NCBI GenBank assembly: GCA_051886195.1
Contig: JBJEXW010000003.1
Coordinates: 23,844 to 87,843 of the forward strand
Source of the DNA: Clostridia bacterium
GTDB lineage: Bacteria; Bacillota; Clostridia; TANB77; CAG-465
Reading direction: 5' to 3'
Length of the DNA stretch: 64,000 nucleotides
Part shown: positions 2,077 through 59,830 of the stretch, piece by piece
How positions within the stretch are numbered: position 1 is the first letter of the stretch
Layout of the letters: each line of letters starts with the position of its first letter
Notes under the pieces: model-generated
What the model was told of the DNA's origin: nothing
Seen by the model: only the letters and a program-made list of their open reading frames with translations
Database searches by the model: none
Position numbers and translations under genes: made by a program

Positions 2077-2174
2077 AATAGCCTTAAATAAAGAGGCAAA
2101 CTGTACTTTGAAAACATAAAAAATAAAACTAGACAGGCAGGAAAAAAATTTTTAACTTTTTTTAGAAAAACTCT

Positions 2175-2202
2175 TGACTTTTGTATGTTGATACAATATA
2201 AT
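2175..2202 (+). promoter_or_regulatory. Sigma-A-type promoter (TTGACT, 16 nt, TATAAT) with TGTAT..ATACA operator repeats
   Basis: Near-consensus -35 and -10 boxes; two TGTATG-N2-GATACA-like repeats overlap the -10 and +1. Confidence 0.5.
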
Positions 2203-2224
2203 GTATGTAGATACAGGAGGAGGG

Positions 2225-2404
2225 ATTAAAATAGAAAAGAAAAGTAGGGCTGAATATTTTAGAAAAAGAAGAGAATTTTTAAGTGGATTTAATGTATTAA
2301 TTCCAAAAGAAAAATATGAAGCTATAAACGAAGAGTTAAAACGTCAAAATAAAACTAAAACCAAATGGCTTTTAGAAAAAATTGATGAAGAAACAAAAAA
2401 ATAG
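2225..2404 (+). CDS. Small ribbon-helix-helix-like regulator (cassette A)
   Basis: The ATG at 2201 lies inside the -10 box. RBS AGGAGG at 2215; the likely start is a non-canonical ATT/ATA in the same frame (uncertain). Motif FNVLIPKEKYEAI..WLLEKI is RHH-like. Confidence 0.35.
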   Translation: MKIEKKSRAEYFRKRREFLSGFNVLIPKEKYEAINEELKRQNKTKTKWLLEKIDEETKK

Positions 2405-2436
2405 AGTATTGTGACACTCGCCAAAGTAAACCACAA

Positions 2437-2530
2437 TACTCAACTCAATAAGAACTTTAGTCCTTATAAATCTATTGTATCACAGTAAGGGCTGAAGTTC
2501 AAGAGAAATTTTGAATGGAGGTCATTTTTT
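2437..2530 (+). ncRNA. Conserved ~90-nt leader element (copy A), candidate regulatory RNA
   Basis: About 95% identical to 8268..8356 while the flanking coding sequence has diverged; ends in the RBS GGAGG for the next ORF. Confidence 0.35.
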
Positions 2531-2794
2531 ATGGAAAGAAAGGTAAATATAGACAAAATAGAAGATGCAAATGTAAAGATAAGTAAGATTGAGAATTTAT
2601 TAGGATATTTAATAGAAAAGGATTATAGTGCTATAAATGCAGTTAACGAAGAACTAAGTGGAACTACATTAGAATATGTATTTAATATTAAATATCATGA
2701 TACACAAAACGTATTAGATATAATACAAGATTATGTGATTTCAATGAAGAAAGATATAGAAGATGCAATTAATTCTTCTATAAAGGAGAACTAA
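2531..2794 (+). CDS. Small hypothetical protein (MERKV family, cassette A)
   Basis: 87 aa; N- and C-termini shared with the 8357..8521 product. Confidence 0.4.
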   Translation: MERKVNIDKIEDANVKISKIENLLGYLIEKDYSAINAVNEELSGTTLEYVFNIKYHDTQNVLDIIQDYVISMKKDIEDAINSSIKEN

Positions 2795-2796
2795 TT

Positions 2797-2964
2797 ATGG
2801 GAATAATAGAAACTATGATCTTAATAATAATGTGTATTTTAAAAATAGCAATAATGAATTTACCTACGTTATTAATAATAATAGGTATACAAGCTGTTAC
2901 ATATTGGATAACAGGAATAAGTATATATAACAATATAATGAAATTTGTTTTAAGGAGGATATAA
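2797..2964 (+). CDS. 55-aa hydrophobic membrane peptide (cassette A)
   Basis: MGIIETMILIIMCIL...; about 80% identical to the peptide at 8524..8691; absent from the ORF track because it is shorter than 60 aa. Confidence 0.45.
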   Translation: MGIIETMILIIMCILKIAIMNLPTLLIIIGIQAVTYWITGISIYNNIMKFVLRRI

Positions 2965-2967
2965 ATT

Positions 2968-3741
2968 ATGAATGAAATAATAAAAATAAATAATGTAAGA
3001 GGATGTCAAACTGCAAATGGAATGGCACAATTAAATTTAGAGGATGTGGCAAGAGGATTGGGATTTACAAACGTAGCCACAAGTGGTCACGAAGTAGTTA
3101 GATGGGCAAGAGTAAGAAAATATTTAAATGATATAGGTTTTAATATAAAAAATGAAAAATTACCAGAATATATACCAGAGAATATATTTTATAAATTGTG
3201 CTTTAAAGCTAAAAATGAAGTGGCAAGAAGATTTCAAGACATGGTAACAGATGAGGTATTACCAAGTATAAGAAAACATGGAGCATATTTAACACCAGAT
3301 AAAGTAGAAGAAGTATTATTAAATCCAGATACAATAATAAATCTTGCAACAGAGTTGAAGAAAGAACGTTTATTAAACGAGCAAAACCAAAAACTAATAG
3401 GAGAATTAAAGCCAAAGGCAGATTATACAGATATGGTATTACAAAGTAAAGGAACAGTTACAATAAACGCAATAGCAAATGACTATGGTATGACAGCAAT
3501 AGCAATGAATAGGTTATTATATAGTTTAGGAGTGCAATATAAACAGGGAGAACAATGGTTATTATATGGTAAATATAGAAATTTTGGATATACACATAAT
3601 AAAACAATTCATTATCATCATAAGAACGGAACTCCTGCAACTAAATTAAATATGGAATGGACACAAAAGGGTAGACTATTTTTATATAGACTATTAAAAG
3701 AGCATGATATATTACCACTAATTGAAGAATTGAGTGCATAA
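2968..3741 (+). CDS. Phage antirepressor-like protein (Bro-N + KilA-C/ANT domains)
   Basis: N-terminus has a Bro-N pattern (..EVARRFQDMVTDEVLPSIRKHGAY); C-terminus is KilAC-like. Confidence 0.6.
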   Translation: MNEIIKINNVRGCQTANGMAQLNLEDVARGLGFTNVATSGHEVVRWARVRKYLNDIGFNIKNEKLPEYIPENIFYKLCFKAKNEVARRFQDMVTDEVLPSIRKHGAYLTPDKVEEVLLNPDTIINLATELKKERLLNEQNQKLIGELKPKADYTDMVLQSKGTVTINAIANDYGMTAIAMNRLLYSLGVQYKQGEQWLLYGKYRNFGYTHNKTIHYHHKNGTPATKLNMEWTQKGRLFLYRLLKEHDILPLIEELSA

Positions 3742-3803
3742 ATTGATATAAGAAAATTAAGGGGAATAGAGAAATCTATTCTCTTTTTATATGGAGGTAA
3801 AAG

Positions 3804-4091
3804 ATGAGTAACAATTATTTAGTAAAAGATATTCAAAGAATAGTAGTTGAAAGGGAAGATACAAAAGAAATATTGGCAGTAATAACAAATGATGATATTG
3901 AACCTGCCAATAATATTCAAGTTAGAATCAAACCTGTATATAAAAGAGAGATAGACAAATTTAATCAAATAGCTAAGCCAATAAGTGAATTTTTAAGGAA
4001 AAATTATAATATGCATGCAACAGCTATAATTACAGATAGTAATGCTAAAATTGTTATAGATGATATAGGAACACCAACTATAAAAGACTAA
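3804..4091 (+). CDS. Hypothetical phage protein
   Basis: 95-aa ORF with an RBS. Confidence 0.35.
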   Translation: MSNNYLVKDIQRIVVEREDTKEILAVITNDDIEPANNIQVRIKPVYKREIDKFNQIAKPISEFLRKNYNMHATAIITDSNAKIVIDDIGTPTIKD

Positions 4092-4108
4092 CTAAAAAGT
4101 TAGTCTTA
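4084..4108. terminator. Bidirectional hairpin terminator
   Basis: agactaact-aaaa-agttagtct lies between convergent genes. Confidence 0.4.
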
Positions 4109-4110
4109 AA

Positions 4111-4314
4111 TTAGTATATACGATGGTAGTTATGTGTTTTATCAATATATGATAGAGCACTACCTAATGATGAAGCATTTATAAAGTTAGAATATTCTGA
4201 ATAACTAACATTATAATATTGATAAATTGCTCCATCTTTGAATTGAACTTCTAATGTATTATTATCCCAACCTACACTAGAAATTCTACTTGAATATACA
4301 GGTGTTCTGTTCAT
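4111..4314 (-). CDS. KTSC domain protein
   Basis: Motif SSRISSVGWDNNTLEVQFKDGAIYQYYNVSYSEYSNF matches the KTSC consensus (S..I.SVGYD...L.V.F..G..Y.Y..VP..Y..F). Confidence 0.55.
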   Translation of the reverse strand: MNRTPVYSSRISSVGWDNNTLEVQFKDGAIYQYYNVSYSEYSNFINASSLGSALSYIDKTHNYHRIY

Positions 4315-4364
4315 TATATCACCTCCCTATAATTGACATTATAATACTAAAAATTGGTAAAAAC

Positions 4365-4455
4365 AACTATGCCCTGAGTAAGGCATTAAACTGCTCTTAT
4401 ATCCCTTAAAATTAAATTTATTCTAAAAGAGTTAAACTTAATAGTTTAGCTCTTT
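4365..4455 (+). repeat. ~90-nt two-hairpin boundary element, copy 1
   Basis: atgccctgagtaaggcat..aaactgctcttatatccctt..aagagttaaact-taat-agtttagctcttt; repeated at 9447..9527. Confidence 0.5.
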
Positions 4456-4471
4456 AATTATTTATTAGGAG

Positions 4472-7400
4472 GTGAAAAAGATGACAATTGAAGAAATAGA
4501 AATAATAGTAACTGCTAAAGTTGAAGAAGCATTACGAGAATTTAATAAGATGAAACCTCAACTAATGAAAGTAATGGAAGAAGTATCAAAAGAGATAAGC
4601 AAAGTAGATTTTAAGCAATTAAATAATACAGTAAAAGAAGGAACAAATGAAGTAAAGAAACAATTAAAATCTACATTTAATCCAGAAACTTTAGATCCTG
4701 GTTTTCTTAAAGCAACAGAAAAATTATATGCAGAAAGCATCAAAAAAACCCAAAAATATGTTAAAGACGTGCAAAATGAAATGTCAAAAGGAGACATGCA
4801 AGAAATAGGAAGACAAGTAGCACAAGCAACAGAGCAAGTTAATCAGGCTTTAAATAGTGAAAGTGTGCAAAAAGTAGTAAAAGACTCAGTAAAAGCTATA
4901 GAACAAATTAAGGATAAATTAGAAGAAGTAAAAGAAACAAACAAAGAGAATGAAATTAAATTAGATGTAAGTAATGAAGAAGCACTAGAGCAGATTACAC
5001 AATTAGAAAAAGAAATTGATTCGTTACAAAAGAAAATTACATCTAGGGAGATGAAATTGAGTGTAACAACGGATGCAATAGATAAAATACGATATGGAAA
5101 GCAAGATGAAATAAGAAAACAAAATCCTAGTTTAAGGGATATGCAAGTATCTAATAGAGCTGATTTTCAATTAAGTTCAGATACAGGATATACATCATTA
5201 GTAAATCAAGCGGATAAATTAAATACGGAAGTAACAAAGTATAATAGCTTACTTGAAAGTGCAAAAAGTAAATTAAGTGGATTAAAACAAAATACATCAC
5301 AAGTAGCGACAGAACAAGAAAAAACAAATACAAAAACAAGTAAATTACAAACAATATTCAATTCAGTAGGGGCTGGAATAAAATCTATGTTATCTGGACT
5401 AGGCAAGATGTTCCAAACAGGTGGTAAGGTAGTAAATATATTTAAAAAGTTTACTCCACATCTAGGCAATGGAATGAAAAGCTTATTAAAATATGCAGCT
5501 ACATTATTTAGCTTAAAGAGTGTATATAATACATTAAATTCAGCAGGTCAAGCTTGGTTATCTAGTCAAGATAGTGGTGCTAAACAATTAAGTGCAAATA
5601 TAGATTATATGAAATATGCACTAGGTAGTGCAGTGGCACCAGTAATACAATATGTAACTAATTTATTTTATCAACTATTAAAAGCTGTTCAAAGTGTAAT
5701 ATATGCCTTATTTAAGGTAAATATATTTGCTAAAGCGGGAGCAAGTGCTTATAATTCTATGGCAAATAATGCTAGTAAAGCAAGTAAAGCTAATAAAAGT
5801 TTAGCAAGTATACATAGTGAAATAAATAATGTATCATCAAGTTCTGGAGATAGTGGCAATAATGCATTAGTTCCAAGTATGGACTTTTCTAGTTTAGATA
5901 CACAACTTACACCATTAAAAAAAAGATTAGCTGATTTCTTTAGACCATTAGTTGAAAGTTGGAATACATATAGTCCACAATTAATATCAAAAGTACAAGA
6001 AACATTTAGTCAAATAGGATCATTATTAGAAAGCATAGGACAGAGCTTTATAAATATATTTGCAAATGGTACAGTATATACTATTTTAGAAAATATATTA
6101 AGTATTATAGGTAATATAGCAGAAGCTTTTGCAAATGCATGGAATTACAATGGTAATGGAGATATAATTGTACAAAATCTAGCAACAGCCTTAAATAATT
6201 TATTAATAGCAATAAATAATGTAGTACAAAGCTCAGGTTTTCAAGAATGGTTAAATAATTGTTCTGATAAATTTAGAGAGATAACAGAAAAAATTGCCGA
6301 AATAGATTGGCAACCATTAATTGATGCTTTAAGTAAAATAGGAGCATCAATAGGTACATTAGCTTTAGATATATTAAGTGGATTAGTAGATGTATTTAAA
6401 TGGTTTATTGAAAATCCAGATATATCAGGAATAATATTATCAATTGCAGCAGCATTATTACTTGTAGGTAGCGCAATAAATGCTTTTTCTGGTATTGCAG
6501 CAGTAATATCTTCTCTATCAAATTTAGCATCAGTAATTGGAACAACAATTTCAACTATTATGTCAGTTATAGGAGGAATATCTCTAATCATAGTTGGAAT
6601 AGTAACAGCTATTTCAAGTTTTGTAAGTATGCTTTCAGAAGGATTTAGCTGGCTTAAAGAGGTTATTATGCTAGTAGGAATTGCAATAGCAGCAGTAGGA
6701 GCAATTATTTTAGGAGCACCTGCACTAGTTGCAGGTGTTATAGCAGCAGTAGTTGCAGTTGTGGCTACATTAGTTGTTGCGGTTAAAGAACATTGGAATG
6801 AGATTAAGGAATTTATATCAAATGGCGTAGAAAAAGTTAAAGAAATATTTAATACAGTAATAGAATGGGTAAAAGAAAATTGGCAAGGATTATTATTACT
6901 AATAGTAAATCCATTTGTTGGAGCTTTTAAACTACTATATGATAATTGTGAAGGATTTAGAAATTTCATAGATAGTTTTGTAGAGAAAATTAAAAATTTC
7001 TTTAAAGATTTATGGAATAATATACAAAACATATTGTCGAATATAGGCAGTTTCTTTTCAAATATATTTAATAGTATAGGAAATGTAGTTTCGAATGTAT
7101 TTAATGGAATGTGGAATACAATAAGAAATGTAATTAATGCTATTTTAGGTGGAATAGAGTCTATGGCAAATGGTATAGTATGGGGAGTAAATAAAGTAAT
7201 AGACGTATTAAATAACCTTAATGTTCATATACCAGACTGGATACCAGTATTTGGCGGAAAAGACATAGGATTTCATATTAATCAAATGAGTACTGTTTCG
7301 TTACCACGACTTGCTAAAGGAAATGTAGCATGGAAGGAAACAGTAGGCATTTTTGGAGAGTATTCGGGAGCACAAAATGATCCTGAAATAACATCTCCAA

Positions 7401-7582
7401 GAAGTATAATGTATGAAACATTTGTAAAAGCTTTAAAAGAAAATAATAGCAATAATGATACTCCAATAAGTTTTAATTTGACGGCAATATTTGGAAATAA
7501 GAGAATAGGTCAAATTGCAATAGAAGATATTAAAGATATTAAGAGAGCAACAGGAGAAGATTTAGAGATTATATTTAGCTAA
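4472..7582 (+). CDS. Phage tail tape-measure protein
   Basis: 1036 aa; N-terminal coiled coil, central multi-TM Gly/Ala-rich segment, size and position typical of a TMP. Confidence 0.8.
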   Translation: MKKMTIEEIEIIVTAKVEEALREFNKMKPQLMKVMEEVSKEISKVDFKQLNNTVKEGTNEVKKQLKSTFNPETLDPGFLKATEKLYAESIKKTQKYVKDVQNEMSKGDMQEIGRQVAQATEQVNQALNSESVQKVVKDSVKAIEQIKDKLEEVKETNKENEIKLDVSNEEALEQITQLEKEIDSLQKKITSREMKLSVTTDAIDKIRYGKQDEIRKQNPSLRDMQVSNRADFQLSSDTGYTSLVNQADKLNTEVTKYNSLLESAKSKLSGLKQNTSQVATEQEKTNTKTSKLQTIFNSVGAGIKSMLSGLGKMFQTGGKVVNIFKKFTPHLGNGMKSLLKYAATLFSLKSVYNTLNSAGQAWLSSQDSGAKQLSANIDYMKYALGSAVAPVIQYVTNLFYQLLKAVQSVIYALFKVNIFAKAGASAYNSMANNASKASKANKSLASIHSEINNVSSSSGDSGNNALVPSMDFSSLDTQLTPLKKRLADFFRPLVESWNTYSPQLISKVQETFSQIGSLLESIGQSFINIFANGTVYTILENILSIIGNIAEAFANAWNYNGNGDIIVQNLATALNNLLIAINNVVQSSGFQEWLNNCSDKFREITEKIAEIDWQPLIDALSKIGASIGTLALDILSGLVDVFKWFIENPDISGIILSIAAALLLVGSAINAFSGIAAVISSLSNLASVIGTTISTIMSVIGGISLIIVGIVTAISSFVSMLSEGFSWLKEVIMLVGIAIAAVGAIILGAPALVAGVIAAVVAVVATLVVAVKEHWNEIKEFISNGVEKVKEIFNTVIEWVKENWQGLLLLIVNPFVGAFKLLYDNCEGFRNFIDSFVEKIKNFFKDLWNNIQNILSNIGSFFSNIFNSIGNVVSNVFNGMWNTIRNVINAILGGIESMANGIVWGVNKVIDVLNNLNVHIPDWIPVFGGKDIGFHINQMSTVSLPRLAKGNVAWKETVGIFGEYSGAQNDPEITSPRSIMYETFVKALKENNSNNDTPISFNLTAIFGNKRIGQIAIEDIKDIKRATGEDLEIIFS

Positions 7583-7892: not shown

Positions 7893-7896
7893 AAAA

Positions 7897-7925
7897 TAAG
7901 AAGAGTTAACAGAGGTTAGCTCTTT
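7897..7925 (+). terminator. Rho-independent terminator (aagagttaac..gttagctctt + T-run)
   Basis: Hairpin plus TTTTTT; the same hairpin sequence ends both cassettes. Confidence 0.5.
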
Positions 7926-7988
7926 TTTGTACCTTAAAAACATAAAAAACAGACAGAAAAATATTTTTAACTTTTTTATAAAAAACTC

Positions 7989-8031
7989 TTGATATATGTA
8001 TCCACAAATGATAATATATATGTGGATACAG
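7989..8031 (+). promoter_or_regulatory. Promoter (TTGATA, 17 nt, TAATAT) inside the palindromic operator TGTATCCACA-N13-TGTGGATACA
   Basis: 10/11 inverted repeat centred on the -10 box. Confidence 0.5.
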
Positions 8032-8037
8032 AAAGAG

Positions 8038-8223
8038 GTGAGTAAAATAGAAGTAAAAAAAATGGGTAGACCTACTAATGATCCTAAAAAATTAAATACT
8101 AGAATTAGATTATCAGAAAAAGATGTAGAAAAATTAAATTTTTGTTGCAGTAAGACAGGAAAATTAAAATCGGAAATAATAAGAGAAGGAATAGATAAGG
8201 TTTACACCGAATTAAATAAATAA
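8038..8223 (+). CDS. Ribbon-helix-helix regulator (cassette B)
   Basis: GTG start after the RBS GAAAGAGG; motif MGRPTNDPKKLNTRIRLSEKDVEKL is RHH-like. Confidence 0.45.
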   Translation: MSKIEVKKMGRPTNDPKKLNTRIRLSEKDVEKLNFCCSKTGKLKSEIIREGIDKVYTELNK

Positions 8224-8267
8224 AAAGAAGAAACCCGTTACATATCTTGGCGGATACACGAGTTTCT

Positions 8268-8356
8268 TACAAGTAAGAATTTTAGTCCTTACAAATCTAA
8301 TTGTATCACAGTAAGGGCTGAAGTTCAAGAGAAATTTTGAATGGAGGTCATTTTTT
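8268..8356 (+). ncRNA. Conserved leader element (copy B)
   Basis: About 95% identical to 2437..2530. Confidence 0.35.
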
Positions 8357-8521
8357 ATGGAAAGAAAGGTAGATAAAAATTGGAAATTAGAGGAACAAAA
8401 TTATGAATTATTAAGAAAATATGAAGATACACAAACAGTTACAGATATATTATTTGATTATTTACTTTCGATAAGAAAGGAATTAAAAAATGTAATTGAT
8501 ACCTCTGTGAAGGAGGATTAA
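8357..8521 (+). CDS. Small hypothetical protein (MERKV family, cassette B)
   Basis: 54 aa; paralogous to 2531..2794. Confidence 0.4.
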   Translation: MERKVDKNWKLEEQNYELLRKYEDTQTVTDILFDYLLSIRKELKNVIDTSVKED

Positions 8522-8523
8522 TT

Positions 8524-8691
8524 ATGGGAATAATTGAAGTAATGATTTTAATGATAATGTGTATCTTAAGAATGATAATAATAAACTTACCTACATTATT
8601 AATAATGATAGGTATACAAGCTGTTACATATTGGATAACAGGAATAAGTATATATAATAAAATAAAAGATTTTATGATAAGGGGGATGTAA
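8524..8691 (+). CDS. 55-aa hydrophobic membrane peptide (cassette B)
   Basis: MGIIEVMILMIMCILRMIIINLPTLLIMIGIQAVTYWITGISIYN.. Confidence 0.45.
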   Translation: MGIIEVMILMIMCILRMIIINLPTLLIMIGIQAVTYWITGISIYNKIKDFMIRGM

Positions 8692-8693
8692 TT

Positions 8694-9437
8694 ATGAATA
8701 ATAAATTAGAAATAGTAAAAAGTGAGAACTTCAATGGAATAGAATGTGATTTTTATAGTGATAAAAAAGATGTTTTTATGACAATAAATCAATTGGCTAA
8801 TTGTTTAAAATATAAAAATGGAAGAAAAGGAATTGAAAATCTAATTAGTAGAAATGAATATTTAAAAAATAGAGAATTTTCAGTTACCCTCGATATGAGG
8901 GCTACTGATGGTAAGCAATATAATACAAGGGTATTTACAGAAGATGGTATATATGAAGTAACAATGTTGGCAAGAACAGAAAAAGCAAGAGAGTTCAGAG
9001 ATTTTGTAAGGAAGGTCTTAAAATCTTTGAGAAAAGGAGAATCTAAATTAATAAAGACACCAGAACTACAAAGATTACAAATTGAAGCTAAATTAAATAA
9101 TTCAAGAGCTAGAGTGGCAAATGTATTATTAAAATTAGCAGATAAAACAAATATACCAGAATATAAACAAGTAATATTATCAAATGTAAGTGCTATATTA
9201 TCTAGAAATCAATTAATACCATTACCTAGTGCAGAAAAGAAAACATATAGCGCAAATGAAATAGGCGATATATTAGGAATAACAGGGAATATGGTAGGAA
9301 GACTTGCAAACGCAAATAATTTAAAAACAGATAAATATGGAAAGTTATTTTATGATAAATCTAAATATAGTAGCAAACAAGTCGAAACATTTAGATATTA
9401 TGAAAATATAATTCCAGAATTAAGAAAAATATTATAA
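8694..9437 (+). CDS. Phage antirepressor-like protein (Bro-N domain)
   Basis: FNGIECDFYSDKKDVFMTINQLANCL is a Bro-N signature. Confidence 0.6.
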   Translation: MNNKLEIVKSENFNGIECDFYSDKKDVFMTINQLANCLKYKNGRKGIENLISRNEYLKNREFSVTLDMRATDGKQYNTRVFTEDGIYEVTMLARTEKAREFRDFVRKVLKSLRKGESKLIKTPELQRLQIEAKLNNSRARVANVLLKLADKTNIPEYKQVILSNVSAILSRNQLIPLPSAEKKTYSANEIGDILGITGNMVGRLANANNLKTDKYGKLFYDKSKYSSKQVETFRYYENIIPELRKIL

Positions 9438-9446
9438 AAATAAAGG

Positions 9447-9527
9447 GACTATGTCCTGAGTAAGACATTAAACTGCTCTTATATCCCTTTAAAATAAAAT
9501 TTATAAGAAGAGTTAACGAAAGTTAGC
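9447..9527 (+). repeat. Two-hairpin boundary element, copy 2 (includes a terminator)
   Basis: About 90% identical to 4365..4455. Confidence 0.5.
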
Positions 9528-9623
9528 TCTTTTTGTATTATAAATACTAGTTATGTCATTGATGTTGAAAAAATTAAATAATAATATTATTATTTTGGAT
9601 ATATATTATTACTATATACTTAG

Positions 9624-9670
9624 TTGAAAATGTAAAAAAAATATGTTATAATTTGTCAACGAGGTTGACA
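9624..9670 (+). promoter_or_regulatory. Promoter (TTGAAA, 17 nt, TATAAT) followed by the palindrome TGTCAAC-gag-GTTGACA at +1
   Basis: Consensus boxes; a perfect 7-bp inverted repeat overlaps the transcription start and the RBS. Confidence 0.55.
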
Positions 9671-9674
9671 GCTA

Positions 9675-10982
9675 ATGAGTATTAGAAAATTAAAAATAAG
9701 TTCTAGGGCAAAGAAAATCATTCGTATTAAGAACCAAAGTAAAGAAAAGTTAAGAAAGGTTCTTAAGTATAGGAATAAAAAGAATAAAAAAATGTATGTA
9801 AAGTATTTTACTAAATATAAAAAAAGAAAACAAACAGAGTTAAGTAAAATATTTAGATTATTAGATGATAAAAAATTTTATAAAAAGCCAAGTATCCTTG
9901 TAAGTGGAACAGCTATTATACAAATACCTAGAGTTTTTTGTTTTTCTAAAAATGCTTATGAAACTATTGACATAATAAAAGAGGTAGCATATGCATGTAA
10001 GAATAATCTTGATATAATAATAGATCATTCTGAATGCCAGTATTTAGATTTGGGAGCATCTACAGTTATGGATGTTCTTATAATGGAATATAAAGCAAAA
10101 ATAAAGGCATTGCGTATGCATAAAGGTATAAGAGGTAAACTATCTAAAAGTCAAAAAGTAAATGATTTATTAAAGTTTAGCGGGATAGTAAAACATTTAG
10201 GATTAAATAATGAAATGTCGAATGAATTAGAATTGTTTCCATTAAAAAAGAATAAAGCTCCTGGTGTTTTAGGCGCTGATATAATTGAATATTATAAAAG
10301 GTGTTTAGCAACAAAAGGATTTGAATTAACTGAACAAGGAGAATTATATTTCGGAAATATACTAGGGGAAGTATTAACAAATTGTAAGGATCATGGCGGA
10401 GAAAATTCACAATGGTATGCAATGGGACATTATATTACTAAAGAAGGAAATATAAGCTTAATAATTTTTAATTTTGGACAAACAATTTTTGAGGGCTTAA
10501 ATAGTAAGGAAACATCGAAAGAAACCATAAAAGATTTAGATAATATTACTAATAGACATATAAAATTATTCAATTCAAAGTGGGACAAAGAAACGTTATG
10601 GACTTTATATGCATTACAAAGTGGTGTAAGCAGATTAAAATCAAAGGAAGATCCAACCAGAGGTACTGGGACAATAAAAATGATTGATGGATTCCAGACT
10701 CTTGGCAAGAAAATAGCAGAGGATGGCAAGAAATTAAATCCAATAATGAGTATTACATCTGGTAATGTTAATATAGTTTTTGATGGAACATATAATTTAA
10801 AAGAGGAACATGTAGATGGTGGAATTAGAAAAATAATTGCATTTAACAAGGAAAATGATTTGTATAAATTACCAGATCAGAATTATGTAAAAAATATAAA
10901 AAATTACTTTCCAGGAACAATAATAACTATGAATTTTTATATTGATAATAAGTATATAGATTTAATGAAAAAAGGAGAATAA
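9675..10982 (+). CDS. GHKL (HATPase_c_2, SpoIIAB/RsbW-type) kinase-ATPase with a Lys-rich N-terminus and a sensor-like middle region
   Basis: N-box LGEVLTNCKDHGG, G1-like IIFNFGQTI and G2-like TRGTGTIKMI resemble SpoIIAB EAVTNAIIHG / DEGVGI / ERSGMGFTIM. Confidence 0.5.
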   Translation: MSIRKLKISSRAKKIIRIKNQSKEKLRKVLKYRNKKNKKMYVKYFTKYKKRKQTELSKIFRLLDDKKFYKKPSILVSGTAIIQIPRVFCFSKNAYETIDIIKEVAYACKNNLDIIIDHSECQYLDLGASTVMDVLIMEYKAKIKALRMHKGIRGKLSKSQKVNDLLKFSGIVKHLGLNNEMSNELELFPLKKNKAPGVLGADIIEYYKRCLATKGFELTEQGELYFGNILGEVLTNCKDHGGENSQWYAMGHYITKEGNISLIIFNFGQTIFEGLNSKETSKETIKDLDNITNRHIKLFNSKWDKETLWTLYALQSGVSRLKSKEDPTRGTGTIKMIDGFQTLGKKIAEDGKKLNPIMSITSGNVNIVFDGTYNLKEEHVDGGIRKIIAFNKENDLYKLPDQNYVKNIKNYFPGTIITMNFYIDNKYIDLMKKGE

Positions 10983-10984
10983 TA

Positions 10985-11320
10985 ATGAAAGAAATGATAA
11001 TTAGTTTGCAAAAATATAGAGCAAATGGAGAAAAAATACTTACAGGAAGAGACGAAGGAAAAAGAATAAGGGAAACCTTAAAATTAGATAAGATAGATAA
11101 GGAAGATATAACAGTAACTATAGATATACCAGGCGATATTTTATCATTAAATTCATCATATTTTCTAGGATTATTTCAAAAAAGTATAATACTATTAGGT
11201 GAAGAAAAATTTAGAAAAAAGTATATTTTTAAATGTGAAAGAAAATCAATAGTTGACATTAATGTTGAAGATGGAATACAAGAAGCATTAAATAATGCGA
11301 ATGCTTTAGGAGGAAAATAG
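10985..11320 (+). CDS. STAS-like (DUF4325-type) partner protein
   Basis: 111 aa; ILSLNSSYFLGLFQ..FRKKYIFKC..DGIQEAL fits the DUF4325/STAS pattern; translationally coupled to the GHKL gene. Confidence 0.45.
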   Translation: MKEMIISLQKYRANGEKILTGRDEGKRIRETLKLDKIDKEDITVTIDIPGDILSLNSSYFLGLFQKSIILLGEEKFRKKYIFKCERKSIVDINVEDGIQEALNNANALGGK

Positions 11321-11922
11321 TGAAAAAGGGTTATGTGTATATAGCATTATTTGTATTAATAATTGTCATAAATGTACTAGCGTTTACTATATTCAAAGAA
11401 ACAACATTTGAAAATAAAATAGCCTTTGTAAATATAGTATATCTTATTATAGTATATTTTGTTGATAGGATAGTTGAAAGCTTTGATAAAAAAGATGATA
11501 ATAAAAAATATTGGTTTAAAAATTTTATATTAGAAAAATATATATATGATTATTGTGAGTTTTTTGATTCAGGAGCTGATATTTTAAGAGAGGCAAGTGA
11601 TAGAAAAAATAAATATGTTGAAAGTAATATAGGTGCAAAAGATTTAAAAGAAATGTCTGAAAAATTTCAACAAGAATTATTTGACAAATTTTCACTAATA
11701 AAAAGAAAAATTACATCTATAAATGCATTTATACAAATTTATGATAATGATATTTATTTTAAAGTTCAAGAAGTTATTGAAGAGTATCAAAATAAATTTA
11801 CAGAAATGCTTGAAAATCAACTCAACAATGTAAATGACAATATTGAAAAGGATATAATTGAAATATATGAATTTCGAAGAAAATTATTAGAAATTTTTTA
11901 TAAACATTCTATAGATTTATAA
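11320..11922 (+). CDS. 2-TM membrane protein with a cytoplasmic helical domain (candidate effector)
   Basis: GTG start overlaps the upstream stop codon; two N-terminal TM helices. Confidence 0.45.
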   Translation: MKKGYVYIALFVLIIVINVLAFTIFKETTFENKIAFVNIVYLIIVYFVDRIVESFDKKDDNKKYWFKNFILEKYIYDYCEFFDSGADILREASDRKNKYVESNIGAKDLKEMSEKFQQELFDKFSLIKRKITSINAFIQIYDNDIYFKVQEVIEEYQNKFTEMLENQLNNVNDNIEKDIIEIYEFRRKLLEIFYKHSIDL

Positions 11923-19125: not shown

Positions 19126-19554
19126 ATGGAGAAGATTTTAACATTAATAGTAACAATGCTATTTAAAGTGATGATTGTTACAATAGTTCTTGATTGCATT
19201 TTAGGAGTTTTAAGAGCTATTAAGGAAAGAAAATTTAATTCATGTATAGGGATTGATGGATTAGTAAGAAAATTTGCTATGCTTGTTACTGCAATAGGTA
19301 CAAAAGTAATTGACAATATAGTTCAGTTTAATTTTATAGGATTTGTTCCACAAACAATACGAGACTTTATTCATTTAGACTATGCAGGGATATCTGATCT
19401 ATTTCTTTTATTATTTATAGCCTTTGAAGCGCTATCTATTTTAAAGAATTTGACTAGATTAAAATTACCATTTTTCAAAGGTGTACAAGCTAAATTAGAA
19501 GAGTTTTTAGAAAAATATACTGACGAAACAATAAAAGTGGATAAAGAGGTGTAG
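19126..19554 (+). CDS. Holin (phage_holin_4_1 / TcdE-like)
   Basis: 142 aa, three TM helices, RBS AGGAGGG, immediately upstream of the endolysin. Confidence 0.65.
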   Translation: MEKILTLIVTMLFKVMIVTIVLDCILGVLRAIKERKFNSCIGIDGLVRKFAMLVTAIGTKVIDNIVQFNFIGFVPQTIRDFIHLDYAGISDLFLLLFIAFEALSILKNLTRLKLPFFKGVQAKLEEFLEKYTDETIKVDKEV

Positions 19555-19663
19555 AGATACACCTCTATTTTTATATAAAGGAGGAAAATCATGGGAGACG
19601 AAGAAATAGTTCTAACAGAAGAACAAGAAAAAGAATTTTCAAATAATAAAGGAGATGATACTG

Positions 19664-20614
19664 ATGAGTAACTCAAGTTTAGTAAATACTACAGTTTGGT
19701 GCGCAGAAGGTAATTATACTCATGGCAGAAGTGGAAGAAATATAGAAATGGTAGCTCTTCATCATATGGCTGGTGTTTTATCAGCTGAACAATGTGGAAG
19801 GATTTTTCAACAATCTGGAAGAGGAGCAAGTGCTCACTATGGAATAGGTTATGATGGGAAAATAGGATTGTATGTTGACGAATACAATACAGCGTGGGCT
19901 AATTCTAATTGGGATAGCAATTGCAAATCTGTAAGTATTGAACTATCTAATAGTATGGCTAGTGGAGATTATCCAGTTTCTGATATAGTTTTAAATAAGG
20001 CAATAGATTTGATTGTTGATATATTTAAAAGAAATAATCTAGGTAAATGTGTAAAAGGTCAGAATCTTACATGGCATTCAATGTATTCTAACACTTATTG
20101 CCCAGGAAATTATGTTAGAAGTAAACTAGATTATATAGTTGATAAGGTTAATGAAAAATTAGGATTAAATTCTAATTCTGGTACAAGCTCTAATGATAAT
20201 CTATATAGAGTACAAGTTGGAGCTTTTAGTAAAAAAGAGAATGCTGAAAAATTAGCTGATGAAATTAAAAATAAAGGTGTTGATACTTGTATTATAACAG
20301 AAAATAGTTTATATAAAGTTCAATGTGGAGCATACAGTAATGTATCTAATGCTAGAAACATGGCACAAAAATTAAACAATATGGGATATAGTACGTATAT
20401 AGAAGGATTAAATGAAAGTACATCTTCGAATCAAGGTGTAGCTTATAGGGTAAATTGTGATTATCCAAACATTAGATCAAGTGCATCTTTAAATTCTAGT
20501 ATAGTAAGAAGACCTAAAAAAGGAGATATCATATATGTTGTTGGAATAGAAAATGGATTTTTAAAGTTATCTGATGGAACATATTTGAAAAAAGGGTTCG
20601 CAGATAAAGTATAA
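19664..20614 (+). CDS. Endolysin: N-acetylmuramoyl-L-alanine amidase (amidase_2/PGRP) + SPOR domain + SH3b
   Basis: HHMAG..YCPGN zinc-amidase motifs; SPOR repeats LYRVQVGAFSKKENAEKLA / LYKVQCGAYSNVSNARNMA; SH3-like C-terminus. Confidence 0.8.
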   Translation: MSNSSLVNTTVWCAEGNYTHGRSGRNIEMVALHHMAGVLSAEQCGRIFQQSGRGASAHYGIGYDGKIGLYVDEYNTAWANSNWDSNCKSVSIELSNSMASGDYPVSDIVLNKAIDLIVDIFKRNNLGKCVKGQNLTWHSMYSNTYCPGNYVRSKLDYIVDKVNEKLGLNSNSGTSSNDNLYRVQVGAFSKKENAEKLADEIKNKGVDTCIITENSLYKVQCGAYSNVSNARNMAQKLNNMGYSTYIEGLNESTSSNQGVAYRVNCDYPNIRSSASLNSSIVRRPKKGDIIYVVGIENGFLKLSDGTYLKKGFADKV

Positions 20615-22820: not shown

Positions 22821-22896
22821 TGGTGCTCCTGAGACGAATCGAACGTCCGACCAACGACTTAGGAGGTCGCTGCTCTATCCACTGAGCTACAGAAGC
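22821..22896 (-). tRNA. tRNA-Arg (anticodon CCT)
   Basis: Cloverleaf GCTTCTGTAGCTCAGTGGATAGAGCAGCGACCTCCTAAGTCG...CACCA; anticodon loop CTCCTAA. Confidence 0.85.
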
Positions 22897-43284: not shown

Positions 43285-43360
43285 TGGAGCTGAAACTCAG
43301 ATTCGAACTGAGGACCTACGGTTTACAAGACCGTTGCTCTACCAACTGAGCTATTCCAGC
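43285..43360 (-). tRNA. tRNA-Thr (anticodon TGT)
   Basis: GCTGGAATAGCTCAGTTGGTAGAGCAACGGTCTTGTAAACCG... Confidence 0.85.
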
Positions 43361-43375
43361 AAATATACTTTTTAA

Positions 43376-43451
43376 TGGTGACCCGTAGGAGAGTCGAACT
43401 CCTCACTCCGCCGTGAAAGGGCGATGTCTTAACCGATTGACCAACGGGCCC
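43376..43451 (-). tRNA. tRNA-Glu (anticodon TTC)
   Basis: GGGCCCGTTGGTCAATCGGTTAAGACATCGCCCTTTCACGGCG... Confidence 0.85.
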
Positions 43452-43457
43452 CATTTG

Positions 43458-43533
43458 TGGTGAGCCATCGCAGATTCGAACTGCGGACAACTTGATTAAA
43501 AGTCAAGTGCTCTGCCAACTGAGCTAATGGCCC
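43458..43533 (-). tRNA. tRNA-Lys (anticodon TTT)
   Basis: GGGCCATTAGCTCAGTTGGCAGAGCACTTGACTTTTAATCAAG... Confidence 0.85.
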
Positions 43534-53381: not shown

Positions 53382-53710
53382 GTTTTAGTATCTCAGATGA
53401 TTGCTTGTTTATGCAAGAGGAAAGTCCGGACACTATAGAGCAGGGTGCTAGATAACGTCTAGTGGGAGTGATCCTAAGGAAAGTGCAACAGAAAATAACC
53501 GCTATATATAGTAAGGGTGAAAACGTGAGGTAAGAGCTCACGAATAATTATGGAGACATAATTATGGTGTAAACCCCACCTAGTGCAACACCAGAACTAA
53601 ACATTAAGGTTGCTCGCCAAGTTTTAAGTTGGTGGCTTGAAATGTGTAGCAATATACATTCTAGATAAATGATCATCTAATACAGAATCCGGCTTACGAG
53701 ATGCTAAAAC
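53382..53710 (+). ncRNA. rnpB: RNase P RNA, type B
   Basis: GAGGAAAGTCCGGAC; GGGTGAAAACGTGAGGTAAGAGCTCACG; ACAGAATCCGGCTTA; P1 stem GTTTTAGTATCTC/GAGATGCTAAAAC; promoter TGgTATAAT at 53367; terminator at 53716..53745. Confidence 0.85.
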
Positions 53711-53883
53711 ATATTAAAAAAGCTCTTTTTTGAGCTTTTTTTTATTCTTTATTTGACATAGTAAAACAAAAATGATAATATATTACACAACATAATATAT
53801 TTAACTTTATTTTTATTAAAAAGGAGGGGTATTTATGAGTAAAGATAATTATGAATTAAAATGTTGCATTTGCAAAAAGCCTA

Positions 53884-59673: not shown

Positions 59674-59731
59674 TAAATATTTATATATAAAACTATTGAA
59701 AATAAAAAGATTATATTGTATAATATTTCTA

Positions 59732-59812
59732 TGCCAAGCGATAGAGTACTGTGAACCTTGTCAGATCCGGAAGGAAGCAGCAATAAGCAATATACTCTAT
59801 GTGCTTGGTTTT
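59732..59812 (+). ncRNA. ffs: Signal recognition particle RNA (small, 4.5S-like)
   Basis: Conserved domain IV GTCAGATCCGGAAGGAAGCAGC; closing helix GCCAAGC/GCTTGG; promoter TGTATAAT at 59717; position upstream of dnaX as in Bacillus. Confidence 0.7.
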
Positions 59813-59830
59813 TTTATTAGGAGGTTTAAA

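Follow-up and report, generated by a model that had tools for sequence, protein, structure and literature searches.

A family of small predicted membrane proteins in immI-like antirepressor cassettes of Clostridia phages

Introduction

In phage P22 the secondary immunity (immI) region, comprising mnt, arc, ant and the sar RNA, is located among late genes and is built from a strong promoter with operators, a small repressor gene and then ant, with a short antisense RNA arising from within the unit. The immI operon of phage P1 consists of the c4 RNA, icd and ant; Icd is a reversible inhibitor of cell division on which ant expression depends (PMC8201110; P1 record). Icd is a protein of 73 amino acids (aa) encoded directly upstream of ant (P1 GenBank annotation). 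HK97 gp15, the original moron, is a small inner-membrane superinfection-exclusion protein encoded between the tail-chaperone and tape-measure genes (PMC3594210). Here we analysed a 64,000-nucleotide (nt) stretch of a Clostridia metagenome-assembled genome (MAG; assembly GCA_051886195.1, contig JBJEXW010000003.1, positions 23,844 to 87,843), hereafter the window, and describe two related 55-aa hydrophobic peptides encoded there, each directly upstream of an antirepressor-type gene in a compact cassette.

By analogy, the organisation of these two cassettes, A and B, appears to match the immI regions of P22 and P1. The likeness to P22 lies in a promoter with palindromes and in the antirepressor domains, together with a repressor-like first gene in cassette B only; unlike the cassettes described here, P22 is not known to encode a membrane peptide between its arc and ant genes. 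With P1 immI they share a small open reading frame (ORF) directly upstream of the antirepressor gene, a position among structural genes and an upstream small RNA control element, represented here by a conserved hairpin and a predicted small RNA. Comparison of the peptides with protein and genome collections showed both to be members of a rare, unnamed family of 50–65-aa Clostridia phage proteins with predicted membrane character.

Results

Conservation of the two peptides and their family

Peptide copy A is encoded on the plus strand at 2797..2964 (NCBI ACI4ON_00460; exact match to P0001) and copy B, likewise 55 aa long, on the plus strand at 8524..8691 (NCBI ACI4ON_00500). The NCBI pipeline had already called both genes in this MAG as hypothetical proteins, and the coordinates and translations assigned to them in a first-pass annotation of the DNA were borne out for both copies. 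That annotation had also put their identity at about 80%; the similarity was upheld, with a measured value of 77% at the protein level (41 of 53 aligned residues; BLASTP, E = 1e-27). The two ORFs have a nucleotide identity of 84.5% and contain a 50-nt stretch that is identical in both and near-identical in several other loci. Each is preceded by a Shine-Dalgarno (SD) sequence, AAGGAG at 2783-2788 for copy A and AAGGAGG at 8510-8516 for copy B. The peptides proved to be the best-conserved proteins of the cassettes, as had been claimed, given that the acidic MERKV ORFs upstream of them reach 47% identity over 34 aa and that BLASTP found no similarity between the two first genes, nor between the two antirepressors, of cassettes A and B. 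This constancy of the peptide amid differing neighbours indicates an exchange of the repressor-like gene and of the antirepressor around a fixed middle.

A single-sequence search of 5.8 billion proteins returned 10 clusters, all of 55-56 aa. A profile search of a 1.84-billion-protein representative set, clustered at 50% identity, gave 11 representative clusters, and a second profile search gave 54 clusters, all of 50-65 aa, in which length was kept without frameshifts and protein-level conservation extended down to about 30% identity. The first-pass suggestion that homologues be sought in other Clostridium prophages was answered by about 54 profile clusters, all in phage contexts from metagenomes, and none of the 54 has a name or a Pfam domain. 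The family is rare across GenBank phages, IMG/VR and the GTDB representatives: tblastn with three family members against 50,697 GenBank phage records gave nothing but one chance match to a lactococcal holin (E = 7), scans of IMG/VR gave no close relative and one distant relative (L023), and the GTDB species representatives contained one locus (L012); here and below, L-numbered loci hold other family members, and winA and winB denote the copies in cassettes A and B. Scored against the 723 six-frame ORFs of the window, the family profile selected only copy A (79 bits) and copy B (87 bits), with the next best ORF at 9.7 bits. Since the profile picks only these two ORFs in the window, the match is not a mere reflection of AT-rich or Ile-, Leu- and Met-rich composition.

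Every readable family copy has an SD 7-10 nt before its ATG. Residues that are invariant across lineages are encoded by synonymous codons, with Ser42 read from AGT or TCA and Gly40 from GGA, GGT or GGG; Thr39 is likewise encoded by ACA or ACT, Ala33 by GCT or GCA, and Tyr44 and Asn45 each use either codon. Core changes in L001 and L011 are conservative (V to I, I to L, T to S and V to F). The pairwise ratio of non-synonymous to synonymous substitution (dN/dS) was 0.45-0.9 for the whole ORF and only 0.1-0.4 for codons 30-45. RNA structure was considered as a cause of the near-identical 3' half of the ORF and rejected, as a CTGTTA/TAACAG stem is lost in L001 and L011 with no compensating pairs; this half folds like shuffled sequence (z about 0). 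Taken together, the profile clusters, SDs, synonymous codons, conservative changes and lack of an RNA fold indicate that the peptide is a protein under selection and neither an RNA element nor a chance ORF.

Protein character and predicted structure

Residues 1-44 are hydrophobic, with a grand average of hydropathy (GRAVY) of 1.4-1.5. From the 54-sequence alignment AlphaFold2 predicted a helix at residues 3-39 and, past a break at G40-S42, a second, short helix (residues 43-54), with a mean predicted local distance difference test score (pLDDT) of 83 and values above 90 over the first 30 residues. The two short transmembrane (TM) helices of the first-pass annotation were not recovered in this model, which has one long helix and a short one with no clear two-helix hairpin, and the topology may be either a hairpin or single-pass. 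In the L023 peptide the hydrophobic stretch is single, 26 residues long and free of any charge or proline at its centre. A Foldseek search of viral models returned no match at E <= 0.001, in line with expectation for a bare helix, and a sequence search of the PDB gave no relative of the peptide.

Residues conserved in the family are C13, K/R16, P23, Q/H32, Y36, W/R/Q37, T39, G40, S42, Y44 and N45, and many distant members carry R or K at positions 37 and 40. The conserved polar and aromatic motif sits where the hydrophobic stretch ends and immediately beyond, a place at which membrane proteins reach the cytoplasmic face; a motif of this specificity would fit a defined binding partner better than unspecific damage to the membrane. 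The basic C-terminus noted earlier is present, but is in part a by-product of the downstream gene. Its terminal R-(R/G)-(I/M/V) codons are AGGAGG, AGGGGG or AAAGGGG, that is, the SD of the following gene, and family members without a tightly following gene have other C-terminal ends. The earlier placement of the next ribosome-binding site (RBS) within the 3' end of the peptide gene was accordingly confirmed: on the plus strand AGGAGG at 2953..2958, read as Arg53-Arg54, lies 9 nt before the antirepressor A ATG at 2968, and AGGGGG at 8680..8685, read as Arg53-Gly54, lies 8 nt before the antirepressor B ATG at 8694. Because this SD is read as codons, the basic tail is largely a by-product.

Genomic contexts of the family

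The family occurs solely in phage or prophage settings. When neighbouring genes were compared all against all, the peptide was the only gene common to all 17 distinct loci, with an antirepressor within 1 kb downstream in 10 of the 17. In close relatives (>= 55% identity) a gap of 2-4 nt always separates the peptide gene from an antirepressor-type gene downstream; the N-terminal domain of the latter is Bro-N in winA, winB, L002-L005 and L012, AntA in L001, L006-L009 and L011, and Phage_pRha in L013 and L022. Peptide kinship is independent of this type, as winA (Bro-N) is closest to L011 (AntA; 84%), and the variable tail KIKDLM(I/L)RGI accompanies all three types. These comparisons show that the peptide is not tied to one particular antirepressor.

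The position of the cassette also varies, being before the tape-measure gene in L002-L005, after it in L012 and winB, before terminase in L001 and L006, and adjoining a SocA_Panacea gene in L010. Distant relatives (L014-L021, L023, L024 and L027) belong to an early operon in which a cro-like gene, divergent from a CI-like or LexA-like repressor, precedes them by 1-5 genes; only L027 among them has a Bro-N/ANT gene nearby, two genes further on. The hot spot after the tape-measure gene bears other cargo ahead of the cassette in L012 (463-3268) and L010 (3132-5287), including a protein with a SHOCT domain, a membrane protein, and an antitoxin-type SocA_Panacea gene accompanied by a partner ORF. 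In the related phage group this region looks like a general accessory-gene island.

Cassette organisation

The two cassettes flank the tape-measure gene (4472-7582), with cassette A (2141-4455) located between chaperone-like ORFs (872-1677) and that gene and cassette B spanning 7956-9534. In each, the order is a promoter with operator-like palindromes, a small repressor-like gene, an RNA hairpin and predicted antisense RNA, an acidic ORF, the peptide and the antirepressor, the peptide being the third ORF of a compact unit. An 11/12 promoter, operator-like palindromes, terminator-like ends and differing insertion sites in related phages show each cassette to be, as far as its sequence features tell, a self-contained moron with its own promoter. 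In a comparison that took in loci L001-L013 and L022 as well as the two cassettes, the shared elements are the promoter frame, the RNA element, both MERKV ORF ends, the end repeat and the peptide itself, whereas exchange affects the first gene and the antirepressor. The exchange point 3' of the peptide falls at the conserved peptide 3' end, the SD and the start codon. The cassettes are a tidy example of modular shuffling.

The first gene of cassette A, listed as a 67-aa ORF on the plus strand (2201..2404), matched phrog_3896, whose function is unassigned. Its counterpart in cassette B (7996..8223, plus strand) encodes a small repressor-like protein that matched the transcriptional repressor phrog_876 (E = 1.8e-17); Pfam matches to RHH_1 (E = 0.0095) and RHH_3 (E = 0.019), both below the cut-off, lend weak support to an RHH-like assignment. 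As the listed ATGs (2201 and 7996) fall inside the promoter, -10 or operator region, the true start of the cassette A gene is probably downstream of the promoter and that of the cassette B gene is probably the ATG at 8062. The MERKV ORF of cassette A (2531..2794, plus strand; 87 aa, acidic) ends 2 nt before the ATG of peptide A and had no Pfam or PHROG match, and its cassette B homologue (8357..8521, plus strand; 54 aa) is shortened and likewise acidic. Homologues of this ORF were present at 7 of the 17 loci.

Both antirepressor-type genes are on the plus strand. The gene of cassette A (2968..3741) encodes Bro-N and ANT/KilAC domains (Pfam ANT, 4.7e-31; Bro-N, 3e-7), matched the anti-repressor Ant phrog_130 (2.5e-63) and has its ATG 3 nt past the stop of peptide A. 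The gene of cassette B (8694..9437), with its ATG 2 nt past the stop of peptide B, combines Bro-N (Pfam, 1.1e-11) with a different C-terminal domain, matched the anti-repressor phrog_1726 (2.3e-39) and gave weak PADLOC PDC-S05 matches (E = 5.7e-6); it groups with the pRha proteins of L013 and L022. Two further genes are confined to cassette A. One is a plus-strand 95-aa ORF from the ORF list (3804-4091); an ORF of 95-97 aa also follows the antirepressor in L002, L012, L013 and L022, and the winA ORF does not cluster with these. The other is a minus-strand KTSC-domain ORF (4111-4314; E = 2.9e-14) between the antirepressor operon and the end repeat. This plus-strand end repeat, D4 (4366..4419), is followed by a terminator-like hairpin (4426-4455) and has a 91% identical copy at 9448-9501, which together with the terminator-like repeat D12 (9503-9534) forms the plus-strand end of cassette B (9448..9534). 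A second D12 copy is located at 7896-7927, just before cassette B.

Promoters, operator-like repeats and a predicted small RNA

Cassette A has a plus-strand sigma-70-like promoter at 2174..2202 (TTGACT-17-TATAAT, 11/12), whose -10 element is bracketed by the 14-bp near-palindromes TGTATGTTGATACA (2182-2195) and TGTATGTAGATACA (2202-2215). The plus-strand promoter-like site of cassette B at 7989..8017 (TTGATA-17-TAATAT with TG) is bracketed by a perfect 10-bp inverted repeat, TGTATCCACA (7997-8006) and TGTGGATACA (8021-8030); both pairs belong to repeat D3. A 76-nt plus-strand element (repeat D2; 2474..2549 and 8300..8375) is 99% identical between the cassettes. Within it are the loop and 3' arm of a hairpin, the RBS and opening codons of the MERKV ORF, and a promoter-like site on the minus strand. 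The 16-bp plus-strand hairpin begins at about 2452, just upstream of the MERKV RBS (fold z = -4.3).

On the minus strand of cassette A an antisense small RNA of about 70 nt is predicted at 2395..2467. Its predicted promoter, TTGAAC-17-TGnTACAAT with a -16 TRTG motif, lies at 2502..2474 inside the 76-nt element, and the RNA would form two hairpins, and a hairpin and U7 terminator at 2441..2395; the minimum free energy of the RNA is -23.1 kcal/mol (z = -5.2). The corresponding minus-strand RNA of cassette B is predicted at 8218..8293 with a promoter at 8328..8300. The sequence of the terminator stem differs between cassettes and loci while its shape is kept, with four compensatory pairs in a comparison of only five sequences. 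Because the 76-nt element is the same in both cassettes, one RNA could regulate both. Rfam at the gathering threshold found no family in either cassette, and no RNA structure was found to hide the strong SD at the antirepressor RBS.

Candidate identities that were rejected

The first-pass annotation had likened the peptides to small membrane toxins, holin-like proteins and exclusion peptides. A conserved small membrane peptide tied to antirepressor-like genes was supported and an exclusion-type role is possible, but membership of a toxin or holin family was not upheld. Searches of Pfam, PHROGs, NCBIfam, PADLOC and the PDB assigned the peptide to no known toxin, holin or defence family. The Pfam toxin scan, which covered both copies and all 54 family members, gave no match to toxin models (Fst, Hok/Gef, Ldr, TisB, Ibs and BsrG/TxpA-type) and only sub-threshold hits to DUF6341, PsbN and similar families. 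DUF6341 was rejected with 16.7 and 16.1 bits against a gathering threshold of 26.4 and E < 0.05 in only 7 of the 54 members. No holin model in Pfam, NCBIfam or PHROGs matched, and the lysis holin of the phage was found elsewhere, at 19126-19554 (TIGR01593, E = 1.2e-19), directly before an amidase/SPOR endolysin (19655-20614); the peptides are 10-16 kb from this lysis cassette and adjoin antirepressors instead.

The organisation of a type I toxin was also rejected. Type I toxin genes stand alone, whereas only 2-3 nt separate the peptide gene from each of its neighbours in a densely packed operon, and no credible antisense unit was found across the ORF, within which the minus-strand promoter-like matches are weak (9/12); such matches were at the chance level given by shuffled sequence (16 found against 17.4 expected). 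The sole well-formed antisense unit is the predicted small RNA about 330 nt upstream of the peptide. A lipoprotein was dismissed since the conserved Cys13 is preceded by I-I-M or L-I-M rather than G/A/S and there is no lipobox, and a Sec signal peptide since the N-terminus MGIIE contains no basic residue. An arbitrium-like signalling peptide, suggested by the RGI tail, was rejected because this tail is the downstream SD and is lost without a coupled gene; a signal-peptide N-region and a receptor gene are also lacking.

Other features of the window

A 127-aa ORF at 1693-2076, between the tail-chaperone-like ORFs and cassette A, gave a sub-threshold match to the PemK/MazF toxin (E = 6.8e-4; 20.3 bits against a cut-off of 23.1), and has no evident antitoxin gene as a neighbour. 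A three-gene insertion (9675-11922) separates cassette B from the distal-tail genes; preceded by strong promoter-like sites at 9565-9593 and 9624-9652, it encodes proteins of 435 aa without a family, 111 aa with a weak match to the STAS-like DUF4325 (E = 0.006) and 200 aa with an N-terminal hydrophobic segment. This insertion may be a defence-type moron; no PADLOC model matched it. The lysis cassette closes the phage late region, and a tRNA at 22824-22896 is near the probable end of the prophage. Host chromosome makes up the remainder of the window and carries three further tRNAs, RNase P RNA and signal recognition particle RNA (listed: 43288-43533, 53385-53711 and 59730-59815).

Discussion

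We propose, with a probability of roughly 0.3, that the peptide is an immediate-early membrane protein of an immI-like moron that blocks a host envelope process, with cell division as the first candidate. Its production would come in an immediate-early burst, driven by the cassette promoter or, for distant relatives, by the cro-side early operon, units that would be switched on at the change from lysogeny to lysis or as soon as phage DNA has entered. The hydrophobic helix of roughly 40 residues would then insert it into the cytoplasmic membrane, where the interfacial motif (Q/H32, Y36, W/R/Q37, T39, G40, S42, Y44 and N45) would bind a host membrane protein and cause a transient block of the envelope process. 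The close spacing of the two genes would tie peptide and antirepressor production together, the antirepressor having its own strong, unstructured RBS. A block of division is ranked first because of the icd precedent and of known small membrane division inhibitors. SPO1 gp56, SidA/DidA, SosA and YneA are short membrane-anchored division inhibitors of early-phage or damage-response programmes that bind membrane division components; they would be functional analogues only, with no sequence relationship expected.

Several points weigh against this proposal. Icd of P1 is hydrophilic and unrelated in sequence by inspection, with no alignment run, and the parallel rests on gene position only; Pfam and PHROG scans of the peptide likewise gave no Icd-type family, and no homologue has a known role. 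The choice of cell division over superinfection exclusion would be one of judgement from precedent. The dN/dS signal of selection is modest and comes from short sequences and a small sample. K/R16, together with the R or K of distant members at 37 and 40, falls inside the would-be second TM helix. The strong, unstructured SD of the antirepressor means that translational coupling may be unnecessary, and any Icd-like dependence of antirepressor expression on peptide translation may be weak.

Of the other explanations, superinfection exclusion, which we rank second, is an unlikely one in our estimate. The membrane peptide would block the DNA of an incoming siphophage in the manner of HK97 gp15, T4 Imm or Ltp-type proteins, acting either from a prophage moron or early in infection. 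Cassette A is exactly at the HK97 gp15 moron site, each cassette brings its own promoter-like and terminator-like elements, the peptide is predicted to be a small membrane protein and neighbouring insertions resemble other accessory or defence cargo. However, the tail-region site is probably just permissive, as the cassette is also found before terminase genes and elsewhere; distant members are on the cro (lytic) side, which a prophage would keep silent, and Pfam and PHROG scans gave no similarity to the YebO/gp15, Imm, Sie or Ltp families. A membrane-damaging toxin or abortive-infection effector that forms pores or depolarises the membrane, alone in the way of a type I toxin or holin or with the Bro-N/ANT protein as sensor as in RexA/RexB, would account for the very small size, extreme hydrophobicity and positively charged tail. 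The peptide does not resemble a pore-forming toxin of the generic kind: what is conserved in it is a polar motif and not bulk hydrophobicity, toxin and holin models gave no match, no antisense gene lies over the ORF (where promoter-like matches are at chance) and the phage has a separate holin and endolysin. An effector would also suit the pairing with a DNA-binding-type protein of about 250 aa, as this partner weakly matches the PADLOC defence candidate PDC-S05 in cassette B and as phi11 Gp07, a Bro/KilA-C protein, is growth-inhibitory when over-expressed (PMC5944126), but distant members have no antirepressor neighbour and peptide kinship does not track antirepressor type (winA Bro-N, L011 AntA). 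We rank such an effector third and hold it to be improbable.

Alternatively, the peptide may serve the antirepressor itself, by tethering or gating it at the membrane or merely through translation that delivers ribosomes to ant, in which case it would do little in its own right. The 2-4 nt gap in all close relatives, the antirepressor SD inside the last peptide codons and the translational dependence in the P1 icd-ant precedent would all agree with this, yet the peptide motif is constant while the N- and C-terminal domains of the antirepressor vary (Bro-N, AntA, pRha; with or without ANT), the variable peptide tail does not co-vary with them, and the family also occurs without an adjacent antirepressor. 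Protein-level conservation down to about 30% identity is a further objection, and a pure translational-coupling device is unlikely because the antirepressor SD is strong and in unstructured RNA; an accessory role is, overall, very unlikely. A chance AT-rich hydrophobic ORF, kept by nucleotide-level constraint or by recent duplication, is hardly credible. It would explain the identical 50-nt stretch and the weak whole-ORF dN/dS, given that AT-rich DNA easily yields Ile-, Leu- and Met-rich ORFs, but not the length kept without frameshifts in 54 clusters, the invariant residues with synonymous codons that include AGT and TCA for Ser, the SD at every copy or a family profile that no other ORF of the window fits, and the conserved stretch has neither RNA structure nor covariation. 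More speculatively, and in our view with little chance of being right, the peptide and the Bro-N/AntA/pRha protein could form a two-part Clostridia phage module under a shared antisense RNA, with a membrane event, for instance the arrival of phage DNA or envelope stress, coupled to antirepressor action or abortive infection. If true, this would be a Rex-like sensor-effector pair or a membrane-gated anti-immunity switch, and to our knowledge neither has been described for antirepressor cassettes.

Antirepressor cassettes decide whether a resident prophage stays silent and are common in poorly studied gut Firmicutes phages. In these cassettes, and in some early operons, a small-protein family without a database name is the constant core of an otherwise shuffled unit, and the analysis also suggests control by a small RNA as likely. 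Should the peptide turn out to block division or the entry of phages, Clostridia would be added to the range of the P1 icd-ant and HK97 gp15 designs and a short, specific motif would be at hand for finding the host target; if it has no detectable effect, it would merely lengthen the list of hypothetical small phage proteins. In practical terms, annotation is improved and a compact gene that is easy to test becomes available.

Comparison with known systems

With P1 the peptide shares an icd-like placement, with a 2-4 nt gap from stop to ATG in close relatives and the antirepressor SD in the last codons. The P1 arrangement differs in that icd overlaps ant1, whereas the peptide and antirepressor genes described here do not overlap, and in that the RNA predicted here is antisense and about 330 nt upstream, with an extra small ORF in between. 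The predicted antisense RNA recalls the sar (P22), c4 (P1) and N15 RNAs that control ant genes. The likeness to the HK97 gp15 moron lies in an autonomous insertion at the same site as cassette A and in a predicted small membrane protein; neither Pfam nor PHROG gave a match that would indicate YebO/gp15 homology. HK97 gp15 is, however, a single-gene moron expressed from the prophage, whereas the peptide is one gene of a four-gene antirepressor operon with relatives also in early lytic operons. Type I toxins (Fst, Hok, TxpA, BsrG and clostridial) and class II/III holins resemble the peptide in size, extreme hydrophobicity and positive C-terminal end, but the peptide has no model match, overlapping antisense antitoxin or endolysin neighbour.

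In summary, the sequences describe a novel family of small, predicted phage membrane proteins in an immI-like cassette, and no new mechanism is forced by the evidence. The peptides are sequence kin to none of the known systems, of which the nearest are P1 icd-ant and P22 arc-ant in layout and HK97 gp15 in location.

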